This document shows, one piece after another, positions 22,170 to 38,927 of a stretch of 64,000 bases of DNA (the stretch's first letter is position 1; every line of letters starts with the position of its first letter). The DNA is from an uncultured cyanobacterium (lineage in GTDB: Bacteria > Cyanobacteriota > Cyanobacteriia > Phormidesmidales > Phormidesmidaceae). The stretch spans positions 896,001-960,000 of the forward strand of contig CAWBZI010000001.1 of the NCBI GenBank assembly GCA_963793265.1, given 5' to 3'. Made by a program: the position numbers and the translations under genes. The notes under the pieces were generated by a model, which was not told the DNA's origin, did no database searches, and worked only from the letters and a program-made list of their open reading frames with translations.

Positions 22170-22460
22170 CTAGTGAATCGCGTCGGTGTACTCAATCTCA
22201 TAGACGTTTCCGTCTTTGTACACAAAAAGCAAGCGGTAGTTTCCACTCACTCGTATCTCCCAACAATCAGCTCGGCCCTTAAACGGCTTGAGATTAAAGC
22301 CAGGTGAGCCAAACGTTTCTAGCATCTTCCCTTTGCTATCAGCTTCGTTCAGCAGCGTCAGAATTCGGTCTATTTTCTTAGCGGCTTTAATCGGCAACTT
22401 TAGCGGCTTGTCTTTCTCCCAGAAGTTAGCCAGTCTTTTGTCGGAGAATGTTCTAATCAT
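22170..22460 (-). CDS. higB: HigB-family toxin
   Basis: MIRTFSDKRL, PGFNL..KG, WEIRVSGNYRLLF, C-terminal His. Confidence 0.85.
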   Translation of the reverse strand: MIRTFSDKRLANFWEKDKPLKLPIKAAKKIDRILTLLNEADSKGKMLETFGSPGFNLKPFKGRADCWEIRVSGNYRLLFVYKDGNVYEIEYTDAIH

Positions 22461-22656: not shown

Positions 22657-23583
22657 TTATACAGTTTGACGGCGACGGCTGCGAAGCGCGATCGCACCAA
22701 AGCCGATCAAGGCCATTACCGTAGCAGGTTCAGGCACTTTAGCAGTTGCCAGTCCAACTAGGCGAGTATTACCATCGCCAATCGCGCTGAGGCTTGTGGC
22801 CTCACCCGTTGCCAGATTCACGCCATAGAACATGCCGCCCGAGGTTGCATAGGCTATGTTATCGCCTGCGCTCATTGAGAGAATGTCGAAGCCGCCAACG
22901 TCATCAAAGTCGAAGCCGAGTGCGCCGATGGTGTTGAGCCCGCCCGCGTTGGGTGGGTTTTGTAGCACTAGCGTGTCTTGGGCAAAATCGATGCCGTAGA
23001 GCTGAGTGCTACGGCCTGCGGGCGCGCCAGGGAAAGAGTTGGTGTAGCCGACTGCGGTGATGTTGGGATCTACACCAGCGTTGATATCGTCTGCAACGTA
23101 GGCCAGGGTGCCGTCAGGTTGAACGCCGGGCGTGTCGGCGTCAAAGTCAGCGATCGCACCCGTATCTACATTAATGCGAAAGTTTTGGTCGTTAGCCCCT
23201 TCAAGGCGGAGGCGATCGGCAGCAGGGTTAAAGTCAAAGCCTGAAAGCTGACCACCGTTGAAAGAAAGCGGTGAAAGCGTACTTTCTAACGTTGCCATGC
23301 CTGTAGATGTGTCAATCGTATAGATGGCATCTGTATCAGAGATCGAGTAGAGCTTGCCATTAGCAGGGCGAAAATCAATGCCTAAAAGCGTTCCGTCAAC
23401 GCCGCTGACGGCAACTGAGTTGGTTTTGGTAGGGTCGGCCAAATCAAATGACAATAGCGTGTTGCTATCAGTCAGACCAAACGCCCGGATAGTTGCGGCT
23501 GAAGCCGAAGAGATACCGGAGAGGAGCGCAGCCGCAGAAGTCGCTGCTGACAGTAGTATGAGCGCTATCTTATTCATTTTCAT
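22657..23583 (-). CDS. Secreted DUF4394-domain protein with PEP-CTERM sorting signal
   Basis: Signal peptide from ATG 23583; GIDFRPANGKLY, GFDFNPAADRLR, QNPPNAG; C-terminal VPEP-TM-RRRQ. Confidence 0.88.
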   Translation of the reverse strand: MKMNKIALILLSAATSAAALLSGISSASAATIRAFGLTDSNTLLSFDLADPTKTNSVAVSGVDGTLLGIDFRPANGKLYSISDTDAIYTIDTSTGMATLESTLSPLSFNGGQLSGFDFNPAADRLRLEGANDQNFRINVDTGAIADFDADTPGVQPDGTLAYVADDINAGVDPNITAVGYTNSFPGAPAGRSTQLYGIDFAQDTLVLQNPPNAGGLNTIGALGFDFDDVGGFDILSMSAGDNIAYATSGGMFYGVNLATGEATSLSAIGDGNTRLVGLATAKVPEPATVMALIGFGAIALRSRRRQTV

Positions 23584-23718
23584 AATTTTGTGCGTTTCGT
23601 AGGATTTGAATAGTGAGTGTTTTAAGAACACTTGCGATCTCAGCTAAAGGGAGATTGCATATTCAGTACGAATCCGAGAAAGTACTGGTTCTAAACCAGC
23701 CCCTTCTTCACAGTAAGT

Positions 23719-24951
23719 TCATCGTTCTTTTGATAGCACCTGCTCGTATCGACGACCTGCGATCGCCCACGTAAACTCCTCTTCAATAAACCGCCGCCCG
23801 TTCTGCGAGAGCGTTTGCCTCAGCTCAGCCGAATCAAAAAGCTGCGCGATCGCCCGCACATAGTCCTCAATCGCATTGGCTCGCAATGCCCGTAGCGGCA
23901 CCGTGCCATCATCTACCGTTAAGCCTTCTAAGCCGCGATCGCTCGCCACCACCGGAATCCCCGCCGCCATCGCCTCTAGCGTCTTATTTTTGATGCCATA
24001 TCCCGTCCGCATCGGCACCACACACACCGTTGACTCATGCAGATAAGGCGTCATCTCCGGCACTTTGCCCGTCACCGTCACATTCTCAATTTCGCCTAAA
24101 GCTTTGACCGCAGCGCCGGGCCGAGCACCTACCAAAGAGAGCGTCGCCTGTGGGTAGCGATGGCGCACTAAAGGAAAAATGTCTCTGGCTAAAAAGGTTA
24201 CAGAGTCAATGTTGGGCAGATTGTCCATTGCACCGATAAACACCAGGCTATAGCCGCTCGGATCTTGGGGGCGCATGGGAAATAGCGTGAGATCTACGCC
24301 GTTAGGGATGATAGCGATGTTGGAGTTGCCGCTCAGCTTAGCCATTTGCGTTTGGTCTTCGGCGGTGGTGACGACGAGGTTTGAGAATTTTTGGCAGTAG
24401 TTTTTTTCGTAGCGTTTGAGTAGCGGGAGGTTGAGGCGATCGCGCCAGGGCTTCTCAGCCGTCCCTCCTGCTAGCTGATGCGCGCAAGTTCCATACACCG
24501 AACTATGAATATTCACCACAGAAATAGGAATATGTCGCCCCACATCCGCTGGCACATACGACTCATTAACGCTGTGCTCACAGGTAATCACATCAAATTG
24601 CCCGCTCTCAATTTTGCCATTCACCCAGCGCTGCATTTCCTCTGAATGCATCCCACTCACGCTCGGCGGTACACCGTCTACCGCAAACTTTACCAAGCGC
24701 TGCCCTTTGCCTAATAGGCCAGAATCTTTGCTACTAGAAGGTCTTTGAAAAACAGCCAGCTCATTCACCCATTCTTCAAGCGCTGCAACCTCCGCGTCCG
24801 ATACATCACCACCGCGCAGCGTTGCCAACGAAATTTGATGCCCTTGCTGCTTGAGATATTTGAGCAAATTAAACGTTCTCACCGAAGTACCGCCCCGCGT
24901 CGGCGGATACGGAAACGTGGCGGAAAGCATCAAAATATTCATAGCAGGCAT
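23719..24951 (-). CDS. Glycosyltransferase family 4
   Basis: FPYPPTRGG, IPNGVD, GIKNKTLEAMAAGIPVV. Confidence 0.92.
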   Translation of the reverse strand: MPAMNILMLSATFPYPPTRGGTSVRTFNLLKYLKQQGHQISLATLRGGDVSDAEVAALEEWVNELAVFQRPSSSKDSGLLGKGQRLVKFAVDGVPPSVSGMHSEEMQRWVNGKIESGQFDVITCEHSVNESYVPADVGRHIPISVVNIHSSVYGTCAHQLAGGTAEKPWRDRLNLPLLKRYEKNYCQKFSNLVVTTAEDQTQMAKLSGNSNIAIIPNGVDLTLFPMRPQDPSGYSLVFIGAMDNLPNIDSVTFLARDIFPLVRHRYPQATLSLVGARPGAAVKALGEIENVTVTGKVPEMTPYLHESTVCVVPMRTGYGIKNKTLEAMAAGIPVVASDRGLEGLTVDDGTVPLRALRANAIEDYVRAIAQLFDSAELRQTLSQNGRRFIEEEFTWAIAGRRYEQVLSKER

Positions 24952-25949
24952 TATTCAGTGACGGGATGCAGCGCGGGTAAATAGGCTTTTTGCCGAGCGT
25001 TTTCAGGCAGCTTGGCTTCCTTTTGTCCCAAGTCGCGAGCGCGAGCACAGTAGATATCAAGTGGCGAAATCAGCATATCGATAGCCGGGCCTTTGGCTAA
25101 AGCGCGAGCGGCAGCGGCTTTAGGAAAATCTTTAAGCGCCCAGCGCAATAGGCTGCGGTTGCGTTCTCTAGTCGGTAACGGCCAGGCCAAATCGATGCCG
25201 TGCAGCTCATGTAGATAGCGGTTGGATTTACCGTAGCGGTACCATTGGCTGTGCAAATCTTTGAGCGTTTGCCGGTGCCGGTGCTGAATGGTCGCCTTGG
25301 GTGCGTAGTGAATTTTCCAGTCGCTTTCTCGCTGCACACGCCAGCAGATATCAGCGTCGCCGCCGGTTGTAAGATACGGGCGAAATAGCCCTACGGCCTC
25401 TAGCGCTTTTTTACGAATGGCCAAATTAGCCGTTTGACCGTAGGGGCAAAACTTATGAGCCAGTGTGTCTTGTTGGCTCATGATATGTTTGCGGTCGGCG
25501 TAGCTCTCTAGCAGGGTAGTGCCAGGGAAGGCGACGATTTCGCCTGCAACGAGGCCGATGGTTTTATCTTGAAAAGGTTGGATTAAATAGGTGAGCCAGT
25601 CGGGCTGTGGGTAGCAGTCGGCGTCGGTAAAGGCTAGAAACTCGCCGGTAGCTGCGCGGATGCCAGTGTTGCGAGCGGCGTAGGCACTTTGGATGTCGCG
25701 TTCGTTGAGGATTTTGAGGGTGAGGTTCTGGGCGGTGAAGGTGGCAGCGGCGGCGGCTAGGAGTTGGGGGGTGCGATCGCAACTCCCATTATCCACCAGC
25801 AAATACTCCACCCGATCAGCCGGGTACGTCTGCCCCATCAGGCACTCTAGCAGCCCTGGCAAATCCTGCTCGCCATTGTAAATAGGCACAATGACCGAAA
25901 CCGTGGGGAAGTATGAAGCGGAGATATCCGCGCTCGTTACGGTAGCCAT
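24951..25949 (-). CDS. Glycosyltransferase family 2
   Basis: VSVIVPIYN, VDNGSCD, ARNTG, FTDAD; stop overlaps the GT4 start. Confidence 0.92.
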   Translation of the reverse strand: MATVTSADISASYFPTVSVIVPIYNGEQDLPGLLECLMGQTYPADRVEYLLVDNGSCDRTPQLLAAAAATFTAQNLTLKILNERDIQSAYAARNTGIRAATGEFLAFTDADCYPQPDWLTYLIQPFQDKTIGLVAGEIVAFPGTTLLESYADRKHIMSQQDTLAHKFCPYGQTANLAIRKKALEAVGLFRPYLTTGGDADICWRVQRESDWKIHYAPKATIQHRHRQTLKDLHSQWYRYGKSNRYLHELHGIDLAWPLPTRERNRSLLRWALKDFPKAAAARALAKGPAIDMLISPLDIYCARARDLGQKEAKLPENARQKAYLPALHPVTE

Positions 25950-26124
25950 TGCAGGGTAAAAAAGAACGAATCAACAAATGTTATATCAATGTGATCGTGA
26001 CAGCTTTGCTGATATTCGCTAACGCAAACTGAATAATCTTCAAGATATCCTTATGGAATCTAGCTTGCCCAAGAGAAATACTCATATCTAAATAAGTTAA
26101 TTCGTCCTTCTACCCTTCGCACCT

Positions 26125-27138
26125 GTGCTTAACGACTCTACTGCTACACCCAAAGTTAGTATCTGCGTACCTACCTACAACCGCGCCGCTATTTTGCCCT
26201 ACGCAGTCGAAAGCGTTTTGAGCCAAACCTATCCAGACTTTGAACTACTCATCTGCGACGACGCCTCACCTGACAATACCGCTGAAGTCGTCAGTCAGTG
26301 GTCAGATCCGCGCATTCGCTACATCCGCCATCCGCAAAACATCAAGCGCAGCCGCAACATGCGCTCAGGCTATGAAGCAGCAGCAGGCGAGTACTTCATC
26401 AAGTTCGATGACGACGACGCCCTGACGCCTACTTTTTTAGAAAAAGCCGTTGCCGTTCTCGACGCACAGCCCGAGGTAGATTTCGTCTGCACCGACCACT
26501 GGATTATCAACGCCCGCAATGAGCGTGATGAAGAAGCAACGGCTGCAAACTCGGCAAAATGGGGCAAAGACCGCCTGAGACACGGCGTTATTGATGACTT
26601 AGTTGAAGAAACTTTTTTGCACCAAAGCTTACAGGTCGGCTCCTCGCTGTTTCGCAAAAGCAGCTTAGAAGCTGTGGACTTCATGCGTTTTGAGGCAGAC
26701 GGCTGTGAGGACTTCGATCTTTTAGTTCGCTGCGCTTTGGCCGATCAAACCGCGTATTTTATTCCTGAACGGCTGATGGAATATCGCTTTCATGGCGGTC
26801 AAACGAGCCTTAAGCAAGACATTCATTTCCTCACGGCCAAGTCGTTTTGTCTGGACAGCTATCGTTTTTCTCATCGGCCTGCGCTAGAAGCAGCGCGTAT
26901 CAATAAGCTCAATGGGCTTAAGCAGGTGTTGGCAATGCGCCTGATAGAAAAGGGTGAAGCTCAGCGCGGACGGCAGCTTATTCAAGAGCTTAAGACGGCA
27001 GGGGCACTTTCTAATCGAGCCAAAGTAGGACAAATGCTATCGTACTTACCAAGTTGGATTAGGCAGCTTGCTTTTCAGGGGTTCCGCCAGGTTCGGCCCA
27101 AAGACTACAGCGAGAAAGTACGTAATGCCGCAGGATAA
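26125..27138 (+). CDS. Glycosyltransferase family 2
   Basis: VSICVPTYNR, CDDASPD, KFDDDD, EDFDL. Confidence 0.92.
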   Translation: MLNDSTATPKVSICVPTYNRAAILPYAVESVLSQTYPDFELLICDDASPDNTAEVVSQWSDPRIRYIRHPQNIKRSRNMRSGYEAAAGEYFIKFDDDDALTPTFLEKAVAVLDAQPEVDFVCTDHWIINARNERDEEATAANSAKWGKDRLRHGVIDDLVEETFLHQSLQVGSSLFRKSSLEAVDFMRFEADGCEDFDLLVRCALADQTAYFIPERLMEYRFHGGQTSLKQDIHFLTAKSFCLDSYRFSHRPALEAARINKLNGLKQVLAMRLIEKGEAQRGRQLIQELKTAGALSNRAKVGQMLSYLPSWIRQLAFQGFRQVRPKDYSEKVRNAAG

Positions 27139-28108
27139 GCCTTCTCAAAAAGAATCTAGCCGCAAACCTTGGAAGTTCCCCTGGAAACTGGGCGGGCTTC
27201 TGATGCTCCTTGCAGTAAACCTCGCTTGGATCGGCCTGGGCAAATGGGAGAAAACCGTTTCAGCCTCAGAAGATTCGATTCAAGCTTTGAAGAATGTGAG
27301 TGCAAAAGAAGTAACCGAAGAACCCGCCGATAGATACGTTTATCGAGATAGCGATCACACGTATGAACTGCCGAAGGCGACTGTGCATGTGGTGAGCGCA
27401 TCGCCCGCTGACTCCGTTTCGATAGCGATCGCAGATGAGCTAATGACCGTCGAAGCATTTGCTCAGGAAATACCAGGCGCTATAGCGGTTATCAACGGTG
27501 GCTTCTTCGATCCTAACAACGGTAAAACCACGTCTCACCTCATTAGCCAGGGCCAGGTTGCAGGCGATCCAGAAGAGAACGAGGGACTCACAGGTAACCC
27601 CCGGCTGCAAGCCTTTCTTCCCCAAATCTTTAACCGCTCAGAGTTTCGGGTTTATAACTGCCCGCTGGCAGATAGATCTAGCCCGTACGACATCACCTTC
27701 CATGACGCGCCTGTGCCAGAGGGTTGCAAAATTGAAAGTGCGATTGGGGCTGGCCCGCAGCTATTGCCCGCCGATACGAGTGAAGCTGAGGCATTTACGG
27801 CCTATGAAAATGATGAGCTGGTGCGAGATGCAATCGGCAGCGTGCATCCGAATGCTAGAAGCGCATTAGCCCTTTATCCAGACGGTGGGCTTTCGCTGAT
27901 CATGGTAGCCCAGCGCCTCGATGCTCCTGGCCTAACGCTAGCCGAGCTTACAGAATTTGCCTCTACTCTAGGTGCGAGCCAGCTTCTTAACTTGGACGGT
28001 GGCAGCTCGTCCTCTTTGTATTACAACGGACAAACGCATCTAGCCCGATTAGATGCTGAAGGCAATCCCATTCAACGCTCGGTAAAGTCCGTCATCGTAA
28101 TCGAATAG
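27125..28108 (+). CDS. Phosphodiester glycosidase (NAGPA/EpsL-like) family protein
   Basis: INGGFFD, GAGPQL, ARSA, NLDGGSSS; N-terminal TM; ATG 27125 overlaps the GT2 stop. Confidence 0.85.
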   Translation: MPQDKPSQKESSRKPWKFPWKLGGLLMLLAVNLAWIGLGKWEKTVSASEDSIQALKNVSAKEVTEEPADRYVYRDSDHTYELPKATVHVVSASPADSVSIAIADELMTVEAFAQEIPGAIAVINGGFFDPNNGKTTSHLISQGQVAGDPEENEGLTGNPRLQAFLPQIFNRSEFRVYNCPLADRSSPYDITFHDAPVPEGCKIESAIGAGPQLLPADTSEAEAFTAYENDELVRDAIGSVHPNARSALALYPDGGLSLIMVAQRLDAPGLTLAELTEFASTLGASQLLNLDGGSSSSLYYNGQTHLARLDAEGNPIQRSVKSVIVIE

Positions 28109-28132: not shown

Positions 28133-28798
28133 CTAAGGGTGTACCCAGTGTTCCATCTGAGATACAAACGGCCCAGCGCCGACTAATGCACCGACATAAT
28201 TTTCTGGCATAGGCACCACGTCTAAATACCATCCTTCTGGGCAGTCAATTGGGACGCTCGCCAACCGAGGCGGACTTAGCTGCACCTCAACCGTCTGCAT
28301 CGACTGCGTTAGGCCCAATCCAATCGCCTTTAAGTAAGCCTCTTTGCAAGTCCATCGCTGCAAAAAAGCCTGAAGCTGCTCGCTAGATGGCATCGATTTC
28401 ACCTGCGCTAGCTCACCCGAAGACAGGCAGCGTTCCATCATGCCGTCTAGCCGCTGAATCGTTTTTAGCCGTTCAATATCGATGCCCACTTGCCTGTGAT
28501 GTCCTAAAACGCACAGGGCGATTTCGCCTGAGTGAGAGAGGTTGAAATAAACGCCATCGATGCTGGGTTTGCCGTATTTGCCGTATGAAAAGGTGATTGA
28601 TTGGGGCGATCGCACCAAAGCCTGCCCTAGCAAATGCCGCAACGTCCCTCTAGCAACCACATACCGCCTTTTATCATCAGCAAACTTGAAACGGTTAGCC
28701 CTGGACTTTTCGTCTGATGAAAGACACGTAAAGTAGGCACTAACGGTATTTTCGGACACCTGTAGCGGAATCTGCCATACCTGAACCACCTCGCTCAT
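28133..28798 (-). CDS. Sfp/HetI-type 4'-phosphopantetheinyl transferase
   Basis: YGKP, FNLSHS, VGIDIE, WTCKEAYLKAIG. Confidence 0.95.
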   Translation of the reverse strand: MSEVVQVWQIPLQVSENTVSAYFTCLSSDEKSRANRFKFADDKRRYVVARGTLRHLLGQALVRSPQSITFSYGKYGKPSIDGVYFNLSHSGEIALCVLGHHRQVGIDIERLKTIQRLDGMMERCLSSGELAQVKSMPSSEQLQAFLQRWTCKEAYLKAIGLGLTQSMQTVEVQLSPPRLASVPIDCPEGWYLDVVPMPENYVGALVGAGPFVSQMEHWVHP

Positions 28799-29157
28799 CT
28801 ACCGCTCCGACCCGTCCGTCATGGGTAGGTAAATTTTATTCATAAAGTAAACGCAAAATGTTGTTGTTTGTGTAAAGAGAGCAGACGGAGGTGATTATAC
28901 CTAGAGCAGTGTGCCAGTATTCTTCCTGAGAAGGTCGGCAAATTAAGTCACTAAATACGCTTAATTTGGTCAATTCTTCGGAAGCCAGTCGTCAAGTATC
29001 TGAAACTGACTCCAAGCTTAGCCTCAAAATATATCTAAAAATGCTCCGAAGCTAAGAACGAGCGCTAACCTCTCCGTAAATCGCCCTATTTACGACGGTT
29101 TAACCCAAACGCCCGTAGCTTCACTGATACATAATTGCTACTTTTTCGGCATCAGCA

Positions 29158-31050
29158 ATGGTTTATTCTCCACCTAAACATAGTCAAATAACGACACCTA
29201 AAAGTGTCGATACACATACGAACGAAACGCAGGGCACCCAGTTTTCTACGCTGGTAGAGCTACTTCAATATCGAGCAAAAACGCAGCCAAATGATTTGGC
29301 CTATCAGTTTTTGGTTGACGGTAAGAAAGCAGGTGCGGCTTACACCTATGCAGAATTAGATGAGCAGGCACGGGCGATCGCAGCCCTCCTCCAGCAGCAA
29401 AACGCCAAAGGCGATCGCGCCCTCCTCCTCTACCCACAGGGCATAGAAGTCGTCGCGGCCTTTTGCGGCTGTCTCTATGCAGGCGTCATCGCCATCCCCG
29501 TGCCGCCCCCCGATGCAGGCCGCATGAAGCGCACCCTTCCCCGCCTGCGCGAAATCATCAAAGATGCTAAAGCCACCATCGTTCTTAGCAACGACCGCAT
29601 CATTGAGCTGATTAAAGGCTCTGACGTTGAACTTCCTGAAGGGGATAACAAACTCGACAATATGCACTGGATCGACACCGAAGCAGTCGATCTGTCGCTA
29701 GCGCAGGAGTGGAAAGATCCTGAAGTCAATAAAGACGTATTAGCCTATCTGCAATACACATCAGGCTCTACCTCAACGCCCAAAGGCGTGATGCTCAGCC
29801 ACTACAACCTGCTGCACCACTCCGACTACCTGAAACGTGGCTGCGGCTACAAGTCTGATGGCCCCACCGTCACCTGGATGCCTTACTTCCACGATTACGG
29901 CCTCGTCGAAGGACTTATGCAGCCGCTTTACAACGGCGCGCCCTGCTACATCATGGCTCCGCTGGCCTTTGTAAAAAGACCTTTACGCTGGCTGCAAGCA
30001 ATTCAAAAGTACGGTGCAACCCATAGCCAGGCTCCCAACTTTGCCTATGAGCTGTGCATAAAGCGAATCAAACCCGCTAAGCGTGAAGGGCTAAACCTCA
30101 GCGGTTGGCTCAGCGCCGGAAATGCCGCCGAGCCGATCAACCCTCGGGTCATGCGCGAATTTCATGAGGCTTTTGCTGACTACGGGTTTAAGTGGGAGAG
30201 CTTTTCGCCCGCCTACGGATTAGCGGAAGCAACGCTGCTGGTTTCTTCTACGCCTGTCGGAGAAGCGCCCGTCATTCTGTCTTTAGAAGCAAGCGAACTT
30301 GAGAAAGGTCGAATTGCGTTAGCCGGGCCTGAGTCTAGCTACATTCGCGAAGCTGTGAGCTGTGGCGCTTTGGTCTGTGAAACTGAGGTTGCCATTGTCA
30401 ATCCTGATGCGCTGACGCGATGCGCTGACGATGAGGTCGGTGAGATTTGGGTGAATGACCCTGGTGTAGCGCATGGTTACTGGCAGCGGCCTACAGCAAC
30501 TAGAGAAACGTTTGAGGCTCAGATTGCTGATGAAGGCGCGACTCGCTACCTGCGTACGGGCGACCTGGGCTTTATTAAAGACGGCAACTTGTATATTACA
30601 GGCCGCATTAAAGACTTAATTATTATTCGCGGCACAAATCACTATCCCCAAGATATTGAGTGGACGGTGCAGCAGGCTGATGCAGCAATGCGGCCTGACT
30701 ATGGCGCTTGTTTTTCGATTATTGAGGATGGGGAGGAGCGGCTGGTCGTGGTGCAGGAGGTGGAGCGATCGCTACAAAAAACCCTCAATGCCGAAAACAC
30801 CATCACCGAAATTCGCCAGGCAATCTCCGAAGCCCATGAGCTTCAGGTATACGCTGTGGCCCTCGTAAAGTCCGGTAACGTGCTCAAAACCTCCAGCGGC
30901 AAAATTCAGCGCCGCAAATGTAAGGCCAGCTTTTTAGCAGGCGAACTAGAGGTAGTTGCCGACTGGAGTGAGAACCCGAGCCTGACCGCCAAGGTTCGGA
31001 ACTTGACTCACGAAGTCGAGTCATTAGCGCAAACGTTAGCAAGTAAATAG
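29158..31050 (+). CDS. Fatty acyl-AMP ligase (FAAL)
   Basis: YLQYTSGSTSTPKGV, SQAPNFAY, AYGLAEATL, FAAL-type insertion, YLRTGDLGF, NHYPQDIE, KTSSGKIQR. Confidence 0.92.
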   Translation: MVYSPPKHSQITTPKSVDTHTNETQGTQFSTLVELLQYRAKTQPNDLAYQFLVDGKKAGAAYTYAELDEQARAIAALLQQQNAKGDRALLLYPQGIEVVAAFCGCLYAGVIAIPVPPPDAGRMKRTLPRLREIIKDAKATIVLSNDRIIELIKGSDVELPEGDNKLDNMHWIDTEAVDLSLAQEWKDPEVNKDVLAYLQYTSGSTSTPKGVMLSHYNLLHHSDYLKRGCGYKSDGPTVTWMPYFHDYGLVEGLMQPLYNGAPCYIMAPLAFVKRPLRWLQAIQKYGATHSQAPNFAYELCIKRIKPAKREGLNLSGWLSAGNAAEPINPRVMREFHEAFADYGFKWESFSPAYGLAEATLLVSSTPVGEAPVILSLEASELEKGRIALAGPESSYIREAVSCGALVCETEVAIVNPDALTRCADDEVGEIWVNDPGVAHGYWQRPTATRETFEAQIADEGATRYLRTGDLGFIKDGNLYITGRIKDLIIIRGTNHYPQDIEWTVQQADAAMRPDYGACFSIIEDGEERLVVVQEVERSLQKTLNAENTITEIRQAISEAHELQVYAVALVKSGNVLKTSSGKIQRRKCKASFLAGELEVVADWSENPSLTAKVRNLTHEVESLAQTLASK

Positions 31051-31063
31051 GAGGGATACAGCC

Positions 31064-32947
31064 ATGACGCTTAAGCAATATCAGCTCGCAGAACAGCTAG
31101 AAGCGGCCTTGGGCAATCCCCATCAGCCCGACAGCCTCATGTCCTTTCAGCACACCGCTGAACTAGACGAAGCCGAGCAGTTTCCTCACGACGAAATCGC
31201 CTGGCTCTACAACTGGGGCCTGCAAAACTACTACATCCCCACCGAATGCGGCGGCAAATTCACCTCCTTTGAAGAGTTCGTCGCCTTTGTCCGCGTCCTC
31301 GCCCGCCGCGACCTCAACATCTCCATCGCCTTTACCACGCTGTTCTGGTCATTCCTCACCTGGATGGCAGGTACCGACGAGCAAAAAGAAAAGCTCTCAA
31401 GCCTGATGCGCGAAGACCACACGGCCATGTGTTTGGCCTATTCGGAGCGCGAACACGGCAGCGACTTAGTAGGCGGCGGTGTAACAGCAACTAAAGTTGA
31501 CGGCGGCTACTTACTCAACGGCGAAAAGTGGCCCATCAACCGCGCCACCATTTCAGGCGTTACCTTCGTGCTCGCGCGCACCGATCCCAAAGGCGGCAAT
31601 CGCGGCCTTTCCTTATTCATGGTGGAGAAGAAGGATCTCAACCCCAGCCAGGTTTACAATCTGCCAAAAATTAAAACCCACGGCATCAAAGCAGCAGACA
31701 TGAGCGGCATCGGCTTTAGCGACTGCTTTGTGCCTGAGAGTATGCTGCTTGGTAAAGAAGGGCATGGCCTAGAGCTAGGGCTTAAGGGATTCCAAATTAC
31801 ACGGGCGCTTTGCGCGGCCTTCTCTCAAGGCGCAGCGGATACCTGCTTGCGTACCACGCTTAACTTCGCTGTGAACCGCAGGCTCTACGACAAAACCGTC
31901 ATCGACATGCCCCACGCGCGGCGCACTCTGTCGAATGCCTTCTTAGATATTCTCATTTGCGATTGCGTCAATATTGGCGCGGCTAGAGGCTTTCACGTCG
32001 CCACCAATCAGTTCAGCGTGTGGTCAGCCGTAGACAAATACTTTGTGCCCGTGACCTTAGAAAAGGTCATGAAAGACACCTCTGTTGTGTTGGGCTCGCG
32101 CTTTTATATGCGAGACGAGCACGACTCGGGCGTCTTTCAAAAGGCACTGCGAGATAGCGCCATCATCAGCATGTTTGACGGCAGTTCGGTAGTGAACTTA
32201 CACGCGCTGATTTTGCAGCGACGACAGCTTGCCAAAGCACGGGTGAAGATTCGCGATAAGCCGAAGAAGCTAGCGGCGATGAAGGCGCGTTTGGCACAAA
32301 GCTTTTCACTCGACAAAGACGTACCTACGTTTGAGCCGAACAAGCTGGAGCTAATTAGCCGGGGCGCTGACGATGTGATGCAGGGCTTAGAGTTTGCGCT
32401 TGAAAAGCTTGCGGAGCTTGAATCCTCGAACGATTCGACGGTTGATAAAGCCGTGCTTTCCCAAGTGCTGGAACTCGGCCAGGTCATTCTCGAAGAGCTG
32501 GATGCTCAGGACGAATTGATTGCGCGATCGGCCTTTGAGCATGGTCACGATCAGTCGTTTGAAAGCTTTGAGCTAGCGAAGCAGTACTGCTATTTGCACG
32601 CTGCGATCGCCGCCATCCTCATGTGGGTTCACAACCGGCAACTCCCCGAACTTGGCGACTTTTTCGCCAAAGGCGAGTGGCTTGTTCTTAGCCTACACCG
32701 GCTGCTCTCTCACTTCCGCCTGTCGCTAACCCCGCCCCCAGCGGCCTACCACGAAAACGTAGCCCAGCACCTTTTGCAGCTACACCAGACGGATCGCATG
32801 TTTTCCATCGTTCCTTTTCAGCTTGCACAGCCAAACCCAGCTCAAGCCGCTGAAAGAACTGCTCCGAATACCGCAACAGCTAACCCCACCCCACAGGAGA
32901 CTCCCACCCATGCAGCAACTACAAAGCAAGAACTTCAGCTCCACTAG
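31064..32947 (+). CDS. Acyl-CoA/acyl-ACP dehydrogenase with long C-terminal extension
   Basis: AYSEREHGSD, LNGEKWPIN, F.DCFVP, R.LY, MFDGSS. Confidence 0.88.
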   Translation: MTLKQYQLAEQLEAALGNPHQPDSLMSFQHTAELDEAEQFPHDEIAWLYNWGLQNYYIPTECGGKFTSFEEFVAFVRVLARRDLNISIAFTTLFWSFLTWMAGTDEQKEKLSSLMREDHTAMCLAYSEREHGSDLVGGGVTATKVDGGYLLNGEKWPINRATISGVTFVLARTDPKGGNRGLSLFMVEKKDLNPSQVYNLPKIKTHGIKAADMSGIGFSDCFVPESMLLGKEGHGLELGLKGFQITRALCAAFSQGAADTCLRTTLNFAVNRRLYDKTVIDMPHARRTLSNAFLDILICDCVNIGAARGFHVATNQFSVWSAVDKYFVPVTLEKVMKDTSVVLGSRFYMRDEHDSGVFQKALRDSAIISMFDGSSVVNLHALILQRRQLAKARVKIRDKPKKLAAMKARLAQSFSLDKDVPTFEPNKLELISRGADDVMQGLEFALEKLAELESSNDSTVDKAVLSQVLELGQVILEELDAQDELIARSAFEHGHDQSFESFELAKQYCYLHAAIAAILMWVHNRQLPELGDFFAKGEWLVLSLHRLLSHFRLSLTPPPAAYHENVAQHLLQLHQTDRMFSIVPFQLAQPNPAQAAERTAPNTATANPTPQETPTHAATTKQELQLH

Positions 32948-33218
32948 CGTCGCAACACCCGTCAAAGCCTCTCCAGTTGAAGCGATTCAAGCTTGGCTAG
33001 TAGAGCAAATTGCTGATGTTTTGTCGATTGACCCTGGCACCATCGAAGTTGCCCAGCCGCTCACTCGCTACGGTTTAGATTCTATTGATGCTGTCACCTT
33101 GGTAGGCGACTTAGAAGACTGGCTTGACCTTGAGCTGCCCTCTACTTTGCTATGGGACTATCCCAGCATTGAAAAGGCATCGGCATTCATGGTGGAAGAG
33201 TACGACGTGAGCCTTTAA
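32910..33218 (+). CDS. Acyl carrier protein
   Basis: YGLDSID phosphopantetheinylation site, L.STLLWDYPSI; ATG 32910 with CAGGAG SD inside the 3' end of the dehydrogenase. Confidence 0.92.
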   Translation: MQQLQSKNFSSTSVATPVKASPVEAIQAWLVEQIADVLSIDPGTIEVAQPLTRYGLDSIDAVTLVGDLEDWLDLELPSTLLWDYPSIEKASAFMVEEYDVSL

Positions 33219-33301
33219 ATAGGTCTGTAAAGACTGTCGTAGGGCTCAGTTAACGCGGGCACTTTGCCCATAGTCGCTAATTTTGATTAGAAGCAAAGAC
33301 A

Positions 33302-34774
33302 TTGAACTTCTCTGAGTTTTCGTTTTGGTGGGTGCTCGCGCTCACCAGCATTCCTTTTTTCACGGTGCGCTACGTCGGCAAGGTTTTTGACCGATGGAGC
33401 GATCGCGCTGACACCATCGGCCTTGCCGCCCTCTCCCTGCTCCTCTTCCTCAACGCGAGCAGCACCAGCTTTGCAGTCTTCTTATTTGAGATTCTGTTTA
33501 ACTACTTCATGGTCAGCCTCATGCTGCGCCGCGAAGGGAAACAGGCAAAGCTCATCGCTGCGGCCATCATCATATTTGATGTCGCCGTCCTCGCCTACTT
33601 CAAATACCTCACCTTCTTCATAGAAGACTTTGTTGGTCTTGCCACCACCGTGCCGAACAATTGGGAATCAACGTTTCCCCTGCCTGTCTTCGGCAACATC
33701 CCCCCCGGCGTTTCGTTCTACACCTTTCAAATGGTAGCTTTTGTCGTCGATTCGTACACGGCCCGCCGTAAAAAGCCAATCAAGCTACTCGACTACATCA
33801 ACTTCGTCTCGTTCTTTCCTCAGATTGTGGCAGGCCCGATTGAGCGTCGCAGCAAGCTACTGCCTCAGATCCAGAACTTCAAGTTCAAGTTCACTGCTGA
33901 CAACTTCGATATCGGAATGCGCTGGCTATCGCTGGGCCTGTTCATGAAGTTTGTACTGGGCGATAACATCGCGCCCTACGTTAGCGCTAATAGCGCAGGC
34001 ATGGCGGAAGCTGCAAATCCCTGGCTAGTCTGGTTTTACGCCTTTTTATTCACGCTGCGGATCTACTTCGACTTTGGTGGTTATAGCTTCATGGCCGTTG
34101 GCATTGCCCGCATCCTCGGCGTCAAGCTCACGCTTAACTTTCTCTCGCCCTACACCTCTCAAAGCATTAATGAATTTTGGCGACGGTGGCACGTTTCGCT
34201 CAGCACATGGTTTCGTGACTATGTATTTTTGCCGCTGATGGGCAAGCGTAAAAAATGGGCGGCGTTTTTCCTATTCATTACCTTTGTGCTGTCGGGCTTT
34301 TGGCACGGTGCCGCCTGGAACTTTATGATTTGGGGCGCTTATCACGGCGGGTTGCTGCTGCTGCTGCGCTATGCCGGGCGACCGTTTTCTAAGGTGACGA
34401 GCAAGTTCATCAAGAAACCGCAGATCGTCTCTTGGGCGCTGACGTTCGGAGCGGTAATTTTAGGCTGCTTGTTCTTTATGGACACGAACATCACGCGGCT
34501 GATAGCTAAGCTACAAACGCTAGTCACGCCCTGGGCCTATTCGCCCGCTAATTTCATAGAGGCGATTAGTACGTTTAATACCCCTGAAGGTTTGGTGCTG
34601 AAGATGGCGCTGGTGTTAGCGATCGCATTCCTCGCCATAGAGCACATCGAAGTGTGGCAAAAGCGCACCGAATACGAAATTCTCACCTCTCCCTGGCTCT
34701 CACGCATTCTGCTAGGCATGACCATTGTGTTGGCTGCCCAAGCCCAGTCCGAATTTATCTACTTCGAGTTCTAG
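33302..34774 (+). CDS. MBOAT O-acyltransferase (AlgI/DltB family)
   Basis: PPGVSFYTFQ, FFPQIVAGPI, FWRRWHVSL, GFWHGA; C-terminal EFIYFEF; TTG start. Confidence 0.93.
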   Translation: MNFSEFSFWWVLALTSIPFFTVRYVGKVFDRWSDRADTIGLAALSLLLFLNASSTSFAVFLFEILFNYFMVSLMLRREGKQAKLIAAAIIIFDVAVLAYFKYLTFFIEDFVGLATTVPNNWESTFPLPVFGNIPPGVSFYTFQMVAFVVDSYTARRKKPIKLLDYINFVSFFPQIVAGPIERRSKLLPQIQNFKFKFTADNFDIGMRWLSLGLFMKFVLGDNIAPYVSANSAGMAEAANPWLVWFYAFLFTLRIYFDFGGYSFMAVGIARILGVKLTLNFLSPYTSQSINEFWRRWHVSLSTWFRDYVFLPLMGKRKKWAAFFLFITFVLSGFWHGAAWNFMIWGAYHGGLLLLLRYAGRPFSKVTSKFIKKPQIVSWALTFGAVILGCLFFMDTNITRLIAKLQTLVTPWAYSPANFIEAISTFNTPEGLVLKMALVLAIAFLAIEHIEVWQKRTEYEILTSPWLSRILLGMTIVLAAQAQSEFIYFEF

Positions 34775-34787
34775 GAAAATCACTGCC

Positions 34788-35726
34788 ATGAAACTACCAA
34801 AACTCGCAAGCTGGATTGCGATCGCTGGACTCACCTGGAGCGCAGGATTTATCTACAACACGCGCTTAGGCGGCGATCCGCACTGGCTCGGTCAGCTCTA
34901 TAAAAACAAAATGGCGATCGCTGCCGACATCCCGGAACCCAAACTCATCATCACAGGCGGCTCCGGCGCTCACTACACCGTCAATTCCGATCTGCTAGCT
35001 GGCGAACTCGATATGCCTGTCGTCAACTTAGGGCTAGATGGGCCAATCGGGCTAGACGTGATTTTGCCGAGCGTTTTAGATGCCGTAGAACCGGGTGACA
35101 CTGTGCTACTGGTACCTGAATACCTAATTTTGTCTCCAATTAAGGATCTTAGAGATGGCTTAGGCGAAAAGTCAGCCTGGTTTGGCTTTGTTACTGACCA
35201 GGCAGGCGCTGGCGATCTTTCAGCTAAGCAGGTGGCCCTGGGCGTTTTTCAGCTAGGCATTCCCTCATTAAAAATAACCATAAAAGCCGCCGCCGACCTG
35301 CTCGAAGAAGGCCGCTTTGCAGGCTACTACGATGGCCCACTTACCGAACGCGGCGATCCTATCGAAACGAAGCTACGCACCGGGGAATGGTGGCCGTTAA
35401 AGATCGAAGCGCCTATCTCGGCTCATGCTGCCGAACGTATCGATCAGTTCAAATCAGAAGTCGAAGCCAGAGGCGGCGAACTTATTTTGTCGGTACCTTG
35501 GATATATGGCGATACTACCGACCCAGAAACCATAGAAAATATCCAAAAAACGGCGGATGCCCTCAGCGAGATTGCGCCTGTGCTGGTCGATAGCGAAACG
35601 CTAAATGTTCAGGCTGAGCCAACATTGTTTGCCGATACTCACTACCATTTAATTCCTGAAGGGAGAGAAGCGCGATCGCAACAGCTCGCCCTTCAGCTAA
35701 AACCGCTTCTATCCAATCCAAAATGA
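34788..35726 (+). CDS. Membrane-anchored SGNH-like protein (DltD/AlgJ analogue)
   Basis: N-terminal TM; IITGGSG (block I Ser), NLGLDG (block II), DTHYH (DxxH). Confidence 0.7.
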   Translation: MKLPKLASWIAIAGLTWSAGFIYNTRLGGDPHWLGQLYKNKMAIAADIPEPKLIITGGSGAHYTVNSDLLAGELDMPVVNLGLDGPIGLDVILPSVLDAVEPGDTVLLVPEYLILSPIKDLRDGLGEKSAWFGFVTDQAGAGDLSAKQVALGVFQLGIPSLKITIKAAADLLEEGRFAGYYDGPLTERGDPIETKLRTGEWWPLKIEAPISAHAAERIDQFKSEVEARGGELILSVPWIYGDTTDPETIENIQKTADALSEIAPVLVDSETLNVQAEPTLFADTHYHLIPEGREARSQQLALQLKPLLSNPK

Positions 35727-36970
35727 CCCCCTCAGCGCCCGCTACCAATCCCCATATCTGCATCGTAGGCGGCGGCTTCGGCGGTCTATACACCGCGCTA
35801 TATCTACAAAAATATCGTCACCTTAAAAGCAGCCGCATTACGCTGATCGAGCCAAAAGAACGATTTTTATTTACGCCGATGATGTACGAACTCATCACCG
35901 ACGAGCTTAAAGAGTGGGAAATTGCACCGACCTACAGCAGCTTAGTAGCAGGCACGAATATCATCTGGAAGCAGACTCGCGCAGAGGCCGTAGATTTGCA
36001 GCAGCATACTGTTACTGTCGCTGGCGGCGATCACATTCAATATGACTACCTGGTCGTCGCTCGCGGGGCTGATAGTCGCCCGGTCAATATCCCCGGCGTC
36101 AATGATCACACGCTAACGTTTCGGTCGCTACAAGATGCGCTCAATCTGAAGGCTAGACTCGCCCAGCTTGTTCAAATCCAGGCGCTTCAAACCAACATTC
36201 AACCGATCAATATCAACATTATCGGCGGTGGGCCTAGCGGTGTGGAGCTAGCCGGTAAAGTCTCCGACTACTTAGGCGACCGCCCTCACCAAACCACGCT
36301 TATAGAAAGGGGCGATAAAATTCTGGCACCTTTTGAATCCAGGCTGAGGCGGATTGGCGAAAAAGCGCTGAAACGTCGGCGCGTTAATGTTCTCACTGAA
36401 GCGTCGGTGTCGGAAGTGCGATCAGATTCAGTCACCGTGGAAAAGGATGGCGTTAGCGTATTGCCTAGCCACCTGACGCTGTGGGCTGTGGGCACTCAGC
36501 CTAAGCCCTGGCTGGGCGATCGCCTCCTCGAAGAGAATAAAAAAGGGCAAAGGCTCACGAGGCGATCGCTCCAACTCCCCAACCACGACAACGTATTTGT
36601 TCTGGGTGATAGTGCAGACGTGCGCGATCGCAAAAACAAGCCCGCCCCCGACACCGCCCAAGCCGCCTTCCAAGCCGCCAGCAAAGTTGCCGCCAACATC
36701 GCTGCTCTTACCAAAGGCAAACAAACCAAACCCTTCAACTACCTGCATCTAGGCGACATGCTCACCCTCGGCATCAACGACGCGGGCCTGTGGAGTTTTG
36801 GCATCGCCCTCAGCGGCCCTATCGCTGCCCTCTCTCGTCGGGGCGTCTACATTTTCCGAATGCCCACTCGCCGCCACCAAGTTAAAGTTGCGCGACGCGC
36901 GTTGGGCGAACTATGCAGAGCTATTTTCTTACCCTGGAAAAGGCGGCGCGAGCCTAGCTATGAAAGCTAA
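35723..36970 (+). CDS. Type II NAD(P)H:quinone oxidoreductase, NdbB/NDC1-like
   Basis: GGGFGGLY, RFLF.P..YEL.T.E..WEIAP, GGGPSGVELA, TAQAAFQ; ATGA overlap with the upstream gene. Confidence 0.85.
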   Translation: MTPSAPATNPHICIVGGGFGGLYTALYLQKYRHLKSSRITLIEPKERFLFTPMMYELITDELKEWEIAPTYSSLVAGTNIIWKQTRAEAVDLQQHTVTVAGGDHIQYDYLVVARGADSRPVNIPGVNDHTLTFRSLQDALNLKARLAQLVQIQALQTNIQPININIIGGGPSGVELAGKVSDYLGDRPHQTTLIERGDKILAPFESRLRRIGEKALKRRRVNVLTEASVSEVRSDSVTVEKDGVSVLPSHLTLWAVGTQPKPWLGDRLLEENKKGQRLTRRSLQLPNHDNVFVLGDSADVRDRKNKPAPDTAQAAFQAASKVAANIAALTKGKQTKPFNYLHLGDMLTLGINDAGLWSFGIALSGPIAALSRRGVYIFRMPTRRHQVKVARRALGELCRAIFLPWKRRREPSYES

Positions 36971-37007
36971 TCGCCTCATATATTTCTAAATTCTTAAATC
37001 AGCAGCT

Positions 37008-38927
37008 ATGACTTCTCTTCAGTCAAAAAAACAGAGCAAATGGAGCGCCTTTCATCGGTATCTAGAGCACTATAGCTTGGATGTGCGATCGCTAGCCCTC
37101 CTCAGAATTGGCCTGGCCCTCACTATCCTTGCCGACCTCTTCACCCGCGCAGGCGATCTCGTCGCCCACTACACAGACGCAGGCGTCCTACCCACAGCCG
37201 TACTCAATGACGGCATTTTACAGCCCGGCTACTGGTCAATCCATGCGCTCAGCGGTCAGCCGGTGGTGCAAGGCATTCTTTTTTTCGTGGCAGCGATTAG
37301 TGCGATCGCCATGCTATTTGGCTACCACAGCCGCATCGCCACCATCGCCTCCTGGGTTTTGCTGATCTCAATGCAAAACCGCAATCCGCTGCTACTATTT
37401 GCAGCCGATGACGTACTGCGAGCGGTCATGTTCTGGGCCATGTTTTTGCCCTTAGGCGCAGCCTACTCGGTTGATCGCGCCATGAACACCGCCATCCGCC
37501 CCGTCCCGCTGCGAATTCTATCAGGTGCCACGCTCGCCCTCATGGCTCAGCAGTGCTTCATCTACATTTTCTCCGCCATTTTCAAAACCACCAACGCCGC
37601 CTGGTGGCCCAATGGCACTGCCGTCTACTTTTCGCTCAGCTACGATCAGTACGTCACGCCGCTAGGCCACTTCCTTCTAAATCTAGGGCCGCTGCTCACG
37701 ATATTTACCTTCGTTACGCTAGTGCTCGAATGGATCGGGCCGCTGTTGATTTGGTCGCCCGTTCGCAACGATCTGTGCCGGATGATCGCAGTTGTCCTAT
37801 TCATTAGTCTTCACGCAGGCTTTGGCCTCACGCTGAACTTAGGCATCTTTCCGTTTCTGAGCATCATTACCTGGCTGGCGTTTATTCCCACCTCTACATG
37901 GGAGGCTTTGAGCAAGCGCGTTTATGGGCCTAACAAAGAAGGAAAAGGACGCGGCCCACAGCGCACGGGATTAAGAATCTTCTACGATGCCGACTGCGGA
38001 TTTTGCAAAAAGGTTGTGCATCTCATTCGGATGCTGTTAGTGCTGCCACATACGCCTTTAGCCACTGCGCAAAGCATTCCAGAAATCAACGAGGCTATGG
38101 AGAAGCAAAACTCTTGGGTGATTGTCGATTGGCAAGGGCGGCATCATTACAAGTTTGAGGGTATTGCCTATGTGGTTAGCCTGTCGCCAGTTTTTTGGTT
38201 TCTTGCACCTGTGCTGCGATCGCCCCCACTCATGGCCATCGGCACCCCTTTCTACGAATGGATCGCCACCCATCGCAAAATCGCAGGCCGCTTCACCCGC
38301 CCCTTCAAATTCAAGCCACTCACCGTCAAAAATCCTGGTTGGTTAAGCGCTATTGCCCTACTCCTCCTCGCGCTCACCTTTTCCTGGAACCTACGCAGCG
38401 TCGTCATGCACCGAGCCTTCGTCGAAAGCTCTCAGCCAACAGCAGCGCTAGTGCGCAGGGTCGTTAATAGCCGCACAGCTCAGCGGTTCGACTGGATCGG
38501 CAACGCTACCAGACTAGATCAATCCTGGAGCATCTTTGCACCAGGGCCACCGACTGATGATGGTTGGCACGTGGTTACCGGAGAGCCGCTGACGGCTTTG
38601 GCGACGGCTTCAGCGACTGAAGAAGCCACCGAAATTGATGTGCTTAGGCCGCAAGAGAGCATTAGTTTTGAGAAGCCGACTTTAGGCGATCGCGCCAAAT
38701 TCTACAAAAACATGCAGTGGCGCACCTTCTACATCAACCTCAACCGTAATATCGGCAAAAAGGTCTTCCCCAACTACGGCGAGTATCTATGCCAGCAAAG
38801 CGCCAGCAAAGGACATCCTTTAGAAAATCTGCGCGTCTACTTCATGGACGAAAGAACTGTAGATCCTGGCCTTACTCAGCCTGTAGAACAAACCTTAATC
38901 TGGGAGCAATCTTGCCAAAACCTTTAG
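37008..38927 (+). CDS. HTTM-domain membrane protein with inserted DCC1-like thiol-disulfide domain
   Basis: DVRSLALLRIGL, QNRNP, LPLGAAYSVD, W..GTAVY, LHAG; FYDADCGFC; DQSWSIFAP. Confidence 0.82.
   Translation: MTSLQSKKQSKWSAFHRYLEHYSLDVRSLALLRIGLALTILADLFTRAGDLVAHYTDAGVLPTAVLNDGILQPGYWSIHALSGQPVVQGILFFVAAISAIAMLFGYHSRIATIASWVLLISMQNRNPLLLFAADDVLRAVMFWAMFLPLGAAYSVDRAMNTAIRPVPLRILSGATLALMAQQCFIYIFSAIFKTTNAAWWPNGTAVYFSLSYDQYVTPLGHFLLNLGPLLTIFTFVTLVLEWIGPLLIWSPVRNDLCRMIAVVLFISLHAGFGLTLNLGIFPFLSIITWLAFIPTSTWEALSKRVYGPNKEGKGRGPQRTGLRIFYDADCGFCKKVVHLIRMLLVLPHTPLATAQSIPEINEAMEKQNSWVIVDWQGRHHYKFEGIAYVVSLSPVFWFLAPVLRSPPLMAIGTPFYEWIATHRKIAGRFTRPFKFKPLTVKNPGWLSAIALLLLALTFSWNLRSVVMHRAFVESSQPTAALVRRVVNSRTAQRFDWIGNATRLDQSWSIFAPGPPTDDGWHVVTGEPLTALATASATEEATEIDVLRPQESISFEKPTLGDRAKFYKNMQWRTFYINLNRNIGKKVFPNYGEYLCQQSASKGHPLENLRVYFMDERTVDPGLTQPVEQTLIWEQSCQNL

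Follow-up and report, generated by a model that had tools for sequence, protein, structure and literature searches.

The 64,000-nucleotide stretch analysed here (the window; positions 896,001 to 960,000 of contig CAWBZI010000001.1, assembly GCA_963793265.1) comes from an uncultured cyanobacterium whose genome is 5.68 Mb and 99% complete, and the nearest named homologues of its proteins are from Phormidesmis. It contains a conserved unit of seven plus-strand genes (29158–38927) that encode a FAAL (fatty acyl-AMP ligase), a long acyl-CoA-dehydrogenase-family flavoenzyme, a stand-alone acyl carrier protein (ACP), an MBOAT, an SGNH-fold protein, a type II NAD(P)H dehydrogenase-family flavoprotein (NDH-2) and an HTTM/DCC1 membrane protein predicted to share the fold of GGCX, the vitamin K-dependent carboxylase of humans. 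We propose, with a probability of roughly 0.6, that this unit is a Dlt-like relay that passes a fatty acyl group from the ACP onto a periplasmic or surface glycan. Gene content, gene order, motifs, co-inheritance, predicted folds and a residue map are covered directly by the evidence, and the catalytic steps themselves are a proposal.

The genes are closely packed. The FAAL gene (29158–31050, 630 residues) is followed after 13 nucleotides by the dehydrogenase gene (31064–32947, 627 residues; Pfam N, M and C domains), which in turn overlaps the gene for the acidic ACP (32910–33218, 102 residues; Pfam PP-binding). A gap of 83 nucleotides precedes the MBOAT gene (33302–34774, 490 residues; Pfam MBOAT) and one of 13 nucleotides the gene for the SGNH-fold protein (34788–35726, 312 residues). 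An earlier note on this DNA had described these five genes and a divergent phosphopantetheinyl transferase (PPTase) at 28133–35726 as tightly packed or overlapping and had seen no polyketide synthase (PKS) or nonribosomal peptide synthetase (NRPS) condensing enzyme; all of these identities and the packing were borne out, and the window indeed lacks ketosynthase and condensation domains. Its end point at 35726 was too short, as the NDH-2 gene (35723–36970, 415 residues), which overlaps the SGNH gene by 4 nucleotides, and the HTTM gene (37008–38927, 639 residues; Pfam HTTM at the cut-off, DCC1-like), which begins 37 nucleotides beyond NDH-2, also belong to the unit and had been overlooked; both are co-inherited with it. 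Between 28700 and 40600, promoter-like sites number 4 against 8.5 expected, and terminator-like sites 19 against 13.8 expected (standard deviation 4.4).

The Sfp/HetI-type PPTase (28133–28798, minus strand; Pfam ACPS, NCBIfam HetI below cut-off) is a real gene on the divergent strand, but it is not the dedicated relay component that the note had implied. It is the sole PF01648 match in the source genome; the match is likewise single in five of five genomes, among them two that do not carry the cluster, and the gene adjoins the cluster in only 23 of the 57 loci that carry enough upstream DNA. It is therefore regarded as a housekeeping enzyme, needed to prime the ACP yet not a dedicated part, and the idea of a cluster-specific PPTase was rejected. 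In one genome (G329) it is still in place after loss of the core genes.

Conservation of the unit was assessed in loci anchored on the dehydrogenase, with one genome per species; 89 loci were found and 80 kept. Close kin are over-represented among them because the search patterns were derived from the window's own protein. In the 61 loci with at least 7 kb of downstream DNA, the dehydrogenase is followed by the ACP in 60, by the MBOAT in 58 and by the SGNH, NDH-2 and HTTM genes in 45 each, and FAAL lies upstream in 51 of the 57 loci informative on that side. The gene order in the 61 informative loci supports the relay; the earlier note had named a lack of such conservation as a refuting case.

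The same 401 genomes were then searched separately with the SGNH, dehydrogenase and HTTM proteins. The SGNH protein matched 26 genomes, of which 21 had E<1e-80, four gave weak matches and one held a broken piece. For the dehydrogenase there were 23 matches, comprising 21 with E<1e-200 and one each at 46% and 27%; for the HTTM protein there were 32, of which 21 had E<1e-165, seven were weak, three were broken and one stood at 38%. The strong matches of all three fall in the identical 21 of 401 genomes, including those in which the operon is scattered. An MBOAT ortholog is present in 21/21 of these genomes versus 0/31 chosen others, and a second NDH-2 copy in 15/15 cluster genomes, taken from the 20 other than the source genome, versus two of 15 others; because the genomes are kin, these counts express linkage and not a P value. 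Where operons are split, the detached genes are retained elsewhere: FAAL in five of five cases (as a 61–64% ortholog), NDH-2 in four of five, and HTTM and SGNH in five of five, one of each being broken. Decay of the unit is also joint. Genome G283 is without dehydrogenase and MBOAT, and its SGNH and HTTM genes persist as broken pieces; NDH-2 and a broken HTTM gene remain at the former core site of G329; G297 carries a broken HTTM gene where other parts are lost or broken; and in Crocosphaera watsonii WH 8501 both HTTM and SGNH are broken and a transposase follows the ACP.

Three further loci show rearranged or distant versions of these genes. One (L150, G263:C11:3030-7038) carries a second dehydrogenase-ACP copy with, directly after it, an HTTM gene interrupted by a stop codon; genome G179 (locus L043) has a tandem duplication of the MBOAT; and a short metagenome contig of 65% GC (L244), possibly non-cyanobacterial, bears a pair of MBOAT (46%) and SGNH (32%) genes.

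The loading half of the unit resembles the starter modules of natural-product pathways. FAAL finds its top PDB matches in 7r7e, 7r7f and 7r7g (534–536 bits), which we take to be the olefin synthase FAAL, followed by 3kxw and FadD32. Its alignment to 7r7f (536 bits) covers the full length, including the stretch after YGLAEAT that presumably forms the FAAL insertion, and its best NCBIfam matches are FAAL models, though none reaches its cut-off. The ACP gene opens with an ATG preceded by the ribosome-binding sequence AGGAG and shares 38 nucleotides with the dehydrogenase gene; the protein carries Ser58 (codon 33081–33083) within a GLDSID motif that is found in 84/84 relatives. That the ACP might serve a PKS or NRPS elsewhere had been named in the earlier note as a refuting case. 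The whole genome gives eight ketosynthase matches and one condensation-domain match, none of them on contig C1. Besides the window gene there are four strong FAAL matches, each located within or next to ACPs and PKS genes of its own; because the other FAALs and PKSs possess carriers of their own, it is unlikely that this ACP supplies a distant assembly line. The substrate of the dehydrogenase is likely to be an acyl-ACP. Electron transfer flavoprotein, looked for in five cluster genomes, was found in none of them, and the dehydrogenase thus appears to be without its usual electron acceptor.

In the transfer half, the MBOAT carries its catalytic histidine (His335) in an FWHG motif that at least 95% of the 85 sequences in the alignment retain, and ends in EFIYFEF (hexapeptide F485-I-Y487-F-E-F), with FIYFxF at the end of 84/84 full-length orthologs; both features had been pointed out in the earlier note. 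Its only PDB sequence matches are to DltB, and it scores 192 bits against the TIGR04091 DltB model, whose cut-off is 375. A distinguishing feature is the loop motif PLMG, of which P, M and G are present in 85/85 aligned sequences; the four other MBOATs of the genome and 14/14 neighbouring second MBOATs have PLGG[SN]R at that loop, and DltB carries an insertion there. Judging from work on DltB and DltC, this cytoplasmic loop may contact the carrier and read the donor. PatA and DltX are acylated on their tail tyrosine, which acts as an acyl shuttle (PMC12148441). The source genome has five MBOATs, four of them with a tail-tyrosine motif, and one (tail FVYFQF, loop PLGGNR) is encoded beside a second SGNH-like gene at 40525–43164 of the window; this pair is AlgI/AlgJ-like and likely to be fed by acetyl-CoA.

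The SGNH protein has no Pfam or NCBIfam match, and its alignment gave no PDB sequence match. Its predicted structure (pLDDT 93.5) nonetheless matches SGNH proteins in Foldseek, including DltD (6pfx, E 1.9e-4), and its N-terminal helix (residues 5–27) is likely to be a membrane anchor. Of the GGS and DxxH motifs previously ascribed to this partner, the first holds as GGSG at residues 57–60, with Ser59, but D283-T-H285-Y-H287 replaces the second. Ser59 and DTHxH are kept in 50/50 aligned relatives, and the invariance of the Asp and both His residues makes a variant SGNH catalytic triad likely. The pair therefore has the catalytic His, the FxYxxF hexapeptide and the serine-bearing SGNH-fold partner of a tail-tyrosine relay, without the canonical DxxH. 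Taken with the gene order, the FIYFxF tail in 84/84 sequences, the SGNH fold shared with DltD and the separate ACPs of the other FAALs, this supports the Dlt-like relay that the earlier note had put forward.

The last two genes extend the relay towards quinone chemistry. PDB matches of the NDH-2 protein are bacterial NDH-2 and FSP1 structures, and FSP1 reduces vitamin K. The protein is 41% identical to a universal NDH-2 copy on contig C5 of the same genome, a copy that occurs in 30/30 genomes, so that the window gene is a second copy. We take the universal paralog to be NdbB, the reductase of the vitamin K pathway. One source labels the NDH-2 copy of a Microcystis cluster NdbB; as a second copy, the window protein is not the universal single-copy ortholog to which the demethylphylloquinone reductase NdbB would correspond. 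A score cut-off on the window protein did not separate the paralogs, since 38 of the 66 cluster copies gave a better score with the universal copy, and for this reason copy number was used to judge presence. From its family, the second copy is likely to reduce a membrane quinone.

The HTTM protein was modelled with a pLDDT of 89 and a pTM of 0.88, and 15/15 Foldseek matches of this model at E≤1e-3 are human GGCX. The model superimposes on GGCX with a Z score of 24.1 (residues 13–635 onto GGCX 32–490) and bears a thioredoxin-like CxxC (DCC1) insert at residues 319–430. PDB searches with the protein sequence and with two full-length alignments did not find GGCX, and an HTTM-domain profile built from a domain alignment with distant members matches it at E 1e-19. 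The residue map equates Lys193 with GGCX Lys218, Trp199/200 with Trp223, Glu241 with Asp263, His269 with His287 and Phe281 with Phe299. In GGCX, Lys218 deprotonates the quinol, which Trp223 and Asp263 position, Phe299 holds CO2, and Asn159, His160 and Tyr395 bind the glutamate substrate (PMC12647623). Lys193, Trp199 and Glu241 are present in 45/45 close relatives and in 52, 52 and 51 of 52 distant ones, and Asp134, Tyr186, Gln505 and Trp507 are, like Lys193 and Trp199, invariant in 52/52. The CxxC at 330–333 is invariant in 45/45 close relatives, and its cysteines are kept in 47/52 and 49/52 distant ones, so that the membrane site is retained more strictly than the CxxC. The positions of GGCX Asn159 and His160 are occupied by Ala132 and Ala/Gly133; the conservation of Lys193 and Trp199 together with this replacement indicates that a quinol site has been kept and the glutamate site lost. 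In the model, therefore, the GGCX fold and the Lys218/Trp223/Asp263 set have counterparts and Asn159/His160 do not. The GGCX-like site presumably faces the periplasm, judging from the GGCX topology. The protein is not assigned as a carboxylase, although it may act in a carboxylase-like manner on another substrate, by analogy with MloH, which carboxylates Asp in malonomycin synthesis (as cited in PMC12186529, PMC12647623 and bioRxiv 2026.08.19.745780). A split HTTM-DCC1 and DUF5819 pair with no assigned function is also described in the last of these. Four loci (L160, L161, L164 and L165) have split, HTTM-only genes (315–331 residues) that overlap a partner of 181–188 residues, like the HTTM and DUF5819 pairs.

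A pathway can be proposed from these families. The housekeeping PPTase would prime Ser58 of the ACP, and FAAL would adenylate a medium- or long-chain fatty acid and load it onto this carrier. The dehydrogenase would then oxidize the acyl-ACP, likely to an enoyl group, with Asp rather than Glu as the base. By analogy with PatA and DltX, His335 of the MBOAT would transfer the acyl group to the enzyme's own tail Tyr487, from which Ser59 of the SGNH protein would accept it and, outside the membrane, acylate an amine or hydroxyl on a sugar. In the least certain step, which we regard as possible though doubtful, NDH-2 would reduce a membrane quinone and the HTTM protein would use the quinol at Lys193 on the acyl group or on its acceptor. 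A more specific and still more tentative version of that step is a bacterial vitamin K cycle within an envelope pathway, in which a dedicated NdbB/FSP1-type reductase feeds naphthoquinol to a GGCX-fold enzyme that deprotonates the activated carbon of the enoyl group formed by the dehydrogenase. Should this speculative cycle operate, the enoyl group might be carboxylated, oxygenated or isomerized extracytoplasmically to leave a functionalized acyl chain on a surface glycan, an outcome as tentative as the cycle itself.

Several observations weigh against the proposed relay onto a glycan. All five downstream genes occur together in only 31 of the 61 loci, the 21 cluster genomes are not 21 independent events because of their kinship, and in one genome that has the operon (G405) no close NDH-2 ortholog was found. 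Asp372 of the dehydrogenase (FDGS) aligns with the catalytic Glu of the YEGT motif of MCAD-type enzymes, so that by sequence the protein departs from the canonical acyl-CoA dehydrogenases and simple 2,3-desaturation does not follow; Asp372 is invariant in 32/32 orthologs, and FDGS also occurs in the Acinetobacter and Ralstonia homologues, which marks the Asp as a subfamily trait and not as decay. A DxxH within the last 60 residues is found in three of the 50 SGNH relatives and is absent from the window protein. To the loss of Asn159/His160 in the HTTM protein must be added the large size of the HTTM/DCC1 family beyond this setting (4072 clusters at E≤1e-30). On the side of the acceptor, the downstream neighbour of the unit in the window is pxcA, as in 18 of 42 loci, the LA_3751 glycosyltransferase family is absent from 8/21 cluster genomes and no single glycosyltransferase family is present in all, and there are proposals of carrier-fed cyanobacterial MBOATs with small-molecule acceptors (varlaxin AerO/P/Q; PMC10143770). 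The sigJ response discussed below concerns one of 111 upregulated genes (PMC2779892).

The alternative that survives best leaves the core of the relay as it is and assigns NDH-2 and HTTM/DCC1 a supporting role: NDH-2 would take the role of electron transfer flavoprotein and reoxidize the dehydrogenase flavin, and the CxxC would serve redox or folding functions, with no acyl chemistry at the GGCX-like site. The lack of electron transfer flavoprotein in 5/5 cluster genomes fits such a role, as do the Crocosphaera- and Cyanothece-type loci, in which NDH-2 directly follows the MBOAT and SGNH and HTTM lie elsewhere, and so do the invariance of the CxxC in close relatives and the loss of the glutamate-binding residues. 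The stricter conservation of Lys193, Trp199, Asp134, Tyr186, Gln505 and Trp507 (52/52) than of the cysteines (47 and 49/52) argues against it, and in two genomes (G197 and G329) NDH-2 adjoins HTTM without any dehydrogenase. We consider this division of labour a real possibility, clearly less probable than the relay that it shares.

The acceptor is approached through the neighbourhood. Recurrent neighbours include PMT_2-type and LA_3751-family glycosyltransferases, AglJ-like family 2 glycosyltransferases (GT2), ArnE/F-like flippases, sugar aminotransferases accompanied by a cupin, methyltransferases of the FkbM family and second MBOAT-SGNH pairs. Where the available DNA extends past HTTM (42 loci), a second MBOAT or a membrane protein of these kinds is present in 22. 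The LA_3751 family, the name that NCBIfam gives to one neighbouring membrane-protein group (a 520–550-residue group receives none), is found in 13/21 cluster genomes versus 2/31 others, one of the two being broken. In the corresponding loci of Nostoc sp. TCL26-01 and Anabaena species, the NDH-2 and HTTM orthologs were seen as well, and in Nostoc PCC 7120 they may likewise follow alr4061. The orthologs of MBOAT and dehydrogenase in PCC 7120 are alr4060 and BAB75757, respectively, and alr4057, judged by its numbering, is likely to be the FAAL of the unit; alr4057 is upregulated 2.49-fold together with exopolysaccharide (EPS) genes on overexpression of the EPS regulator sigJ (PMC2779892, Table 5). 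The neighbours and the sigJ response favour a surface glycan, and are compatible with a glycolipid or small glycoside. We thus infer a glycan, and because no glycosyltransferase family is universal and the neighbour in the window is pxcA, the acceptor is not pinned more closely.

The same relay could instead act on a lipid or lipid-linked (amino) sugar, or on a small glycoside that is secreted, to give a glycolipid or an acylated metabolite. A block of cupin, LegC-like aminotransferase and LA_3751 genes recurs beside SGNH and HTTM, as do polyprenyl-phosphate GT2 and flippase genes; the homologous trio of A. baumannii resembles A1S_0112–0114, which are required for the lipopeptide Ac-505 (PMC5376624), and for the MBOATs of suomilide and varlaxin, acylation of small-molecule sugars is the proposed role (PMC10143770). 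Among the frequent neighbours, however, no exporter, NRPS, PKS or thioesterase recurs, and the characterized MBOAT-SGNH pairs with such a tail, as PMC12148441 presents them, act on polymers, which makes acceptors of this kind rather unlikely. Very improbable is a third alternative, that two unrelated modules lie side by side, the trio feeding a PKS or NRPS elsewhere and the MBOAT-SGNH pair being an ordinary acetyl-CoA O-acetylase: homologous trios do feed NRPSs or PKSs in Acinetobacter, Ralstonia and Streptomyces, the genome has the eight ketosynthase matches and one condensation-domain match noted above, and in Microcystis the FAAL-dehydrogenase-ACP trio is located apart from the MBOAT-SGNH pair, but ACP and MBOAT occur together in 58/61 loci, presence and absence of dehydrogenase and MBOAT agree genome by genome, the other FAALs and PKSs own their ACPs, and the PLGG[SN]R loop that the other MBOATs carry is missing from this one.

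The relay onto a glycan, as preferred here, can be set against several known systems. With the Dlt pathway (DltA, DltC, DltB, DltX and DltD) it shares an adenylating enzyme, a stand-alone carrier, an MBOAT, an SGNH-fold protein and an FxYxxF motif. It differs from Dlt proper in that the loader is a FAAL and not the D-alanine ligase DltA, the MBOAT falls below the DltB cut-off, the motif is fused to the MBOAT instead of residing in a separate DltX, and the dehydrogenase, NDH-2 and HTTM genes are added; cyanobacteria are not known to have teichoic acid. PatA/PatB, AlgI/AlgJ and WssH/WssI likewise pair an MBOAT bearing a fused tyrosine hexapeptide with a separate membrane-anchored SGNH partner. 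According to PMC12148441, these MBOAT-SGNH pathways other than Dlt lack a carrier protein and use acyl-CoA, whereas the window unit has an ACP and a loader, a different loop and, across the 61 loci, ACP in 60 and MBOAT in 58, and is thus not a carrier-free system.

The loading genes share their order with the FAAL/dehydrogenase/ACP starter trios, among them A1S_0112–0114, friulimicin LipA/LipB/LipD and MbtM/N/L, with which nocuolin NocH and NocI/NocC and ClyA/ClyB are grouped. In those systems the chain goes to an NRPS, PKS or ketosynthase; in the window the next gene is an MBOAT. The closest relatives are a trio in A. baumannii, 38%, 37% and 48% identical to the FAAL, dehydrogenase and ACP set, which precedes an NRPS and an RND-sized gene and which we identify as A1S_0112–0114 from gene order and PMC5376624, and a homologous trio in Ralstonia (within the same range of 37–48% identity) before an NRPS-type gene. 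The mycobactin-type trio MbtM/MbtL/MbtN that the earlier note took as its model for making an unsaturated acyl-ACP agrees in order, but it is distant (MbtN at E 4e-5, MbtM far below the cut-off) and was rejected as the closest model. Likened by description and not by sequence, NocI and NocC act in vitro as acyl-ACP desaturases (PMC9486936), and LipB forms a cis-3 double bond, as judged by genetics (PMC9113097). The varlaxin AerO/AerP/AerQ and suomilide MBOAT systems are likewise cyanobacterial, with an adenylation domain, a carrier and an MBOAT proposed to acylate a sugar, but they belong to NRPS clusters with an aromatic or short donor and a small-molecule acceptor, and SGNH, dehydrogenase and HTTM proteins are not mentioned in the available text of PMC10143770. 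With GGCX, the HTTM protein shares the predicted fold of the catalytic core and the five mapped residues; it differs in its Asn159/His160 positions, in having no counterpart beyond GGCX residue 490, in the DCC1 insertion and in its envelope acylation context.

Other features of the neighbourhood are of local distribution. Upstream of the PPTase (22657–28108) lie genes for a PEP-CTERM DUF4394 protein, a family 4 glycosyltransferase (GT4), two GT2s and a NAGPA-family protein; conservation of this GT-NAGPA order is confined to Phormidesmis-like loci, and the GT4-GT2-GT2-NAGPA genes were rejected as part of the unit because the order occurs only in close relatives, as was downstream pxcA, which is likewise seen only in close relatives. 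Two short open reading frames at 21807–22460 resemble a HigB/HigA toxin-antitoxin pair, judged by sequence. Elsewhere, an LA_3751 glycosyltransferase (G000:C7:287943-294695) adjoins a likely GtrA-type flippase, GT2s and a further membrane glycosyltransferase; this may be a hub at which the acceptor glycan is made. A block of WbuC-like cupin, LegC-like aminotransferase and LA_3751 genes, the last sometimes GT2-fused, lies beside SGNH and HTTM in loci L036, L041, L047, L095 and L186–L215. In the set of loci L043, L044, L048, L095, L124 and L097, those of Microcystis type have an FkbM-family methyltransferase gene beside the MBOAT, and that of Hyella has a sulfotransferase gene between ACP and MBOAT.

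Every part of the unit belongs to a known family, and we therefore regard it as a variant on Dlt and PatA/PatB logic. Our literature searches returned no description of the FAAL-dehydrogenase-ACP-MBOAT-SGNH arrangement, although the survey in the Dlt mechanism paper (10.1038/s41564-023-01411-0) may list it, and the HTTM/NDH-2 tailoring step is not described in the literature searched. The variant is probably a fatty-acyl, carrier-fed relay with a fused tail, accompanied by a co-inherited GGCX-fold protein and a quinone-reductase paralog. The donors of current bacterial MBOAT-SGNH systems, as outlined in PMC12148441, are D-alanine on DltC or carrier-free acyl-CoA, and the unit would be a third type. 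If the proposal is right, a natural-product-style fatty acyl starter module feeds envelope acylation, and the unit would provide a genetic basis for hydrophobic, fatty-acylated surface glycans in relatives of Microcystis, Nostoc, Coleofasciculus and Leptolyngbya. The large, uncharacterized HTTM/DCC1 family, moreover, is thereby placed in the setting of a pathway: one of its members is inherited together with an acyl relay and with the paralog of a quinone reductase, and the function of bacterial GGCX-fold proteins becomes testable in Nostoc PCC 7120 (alr4060 and its neighbours).

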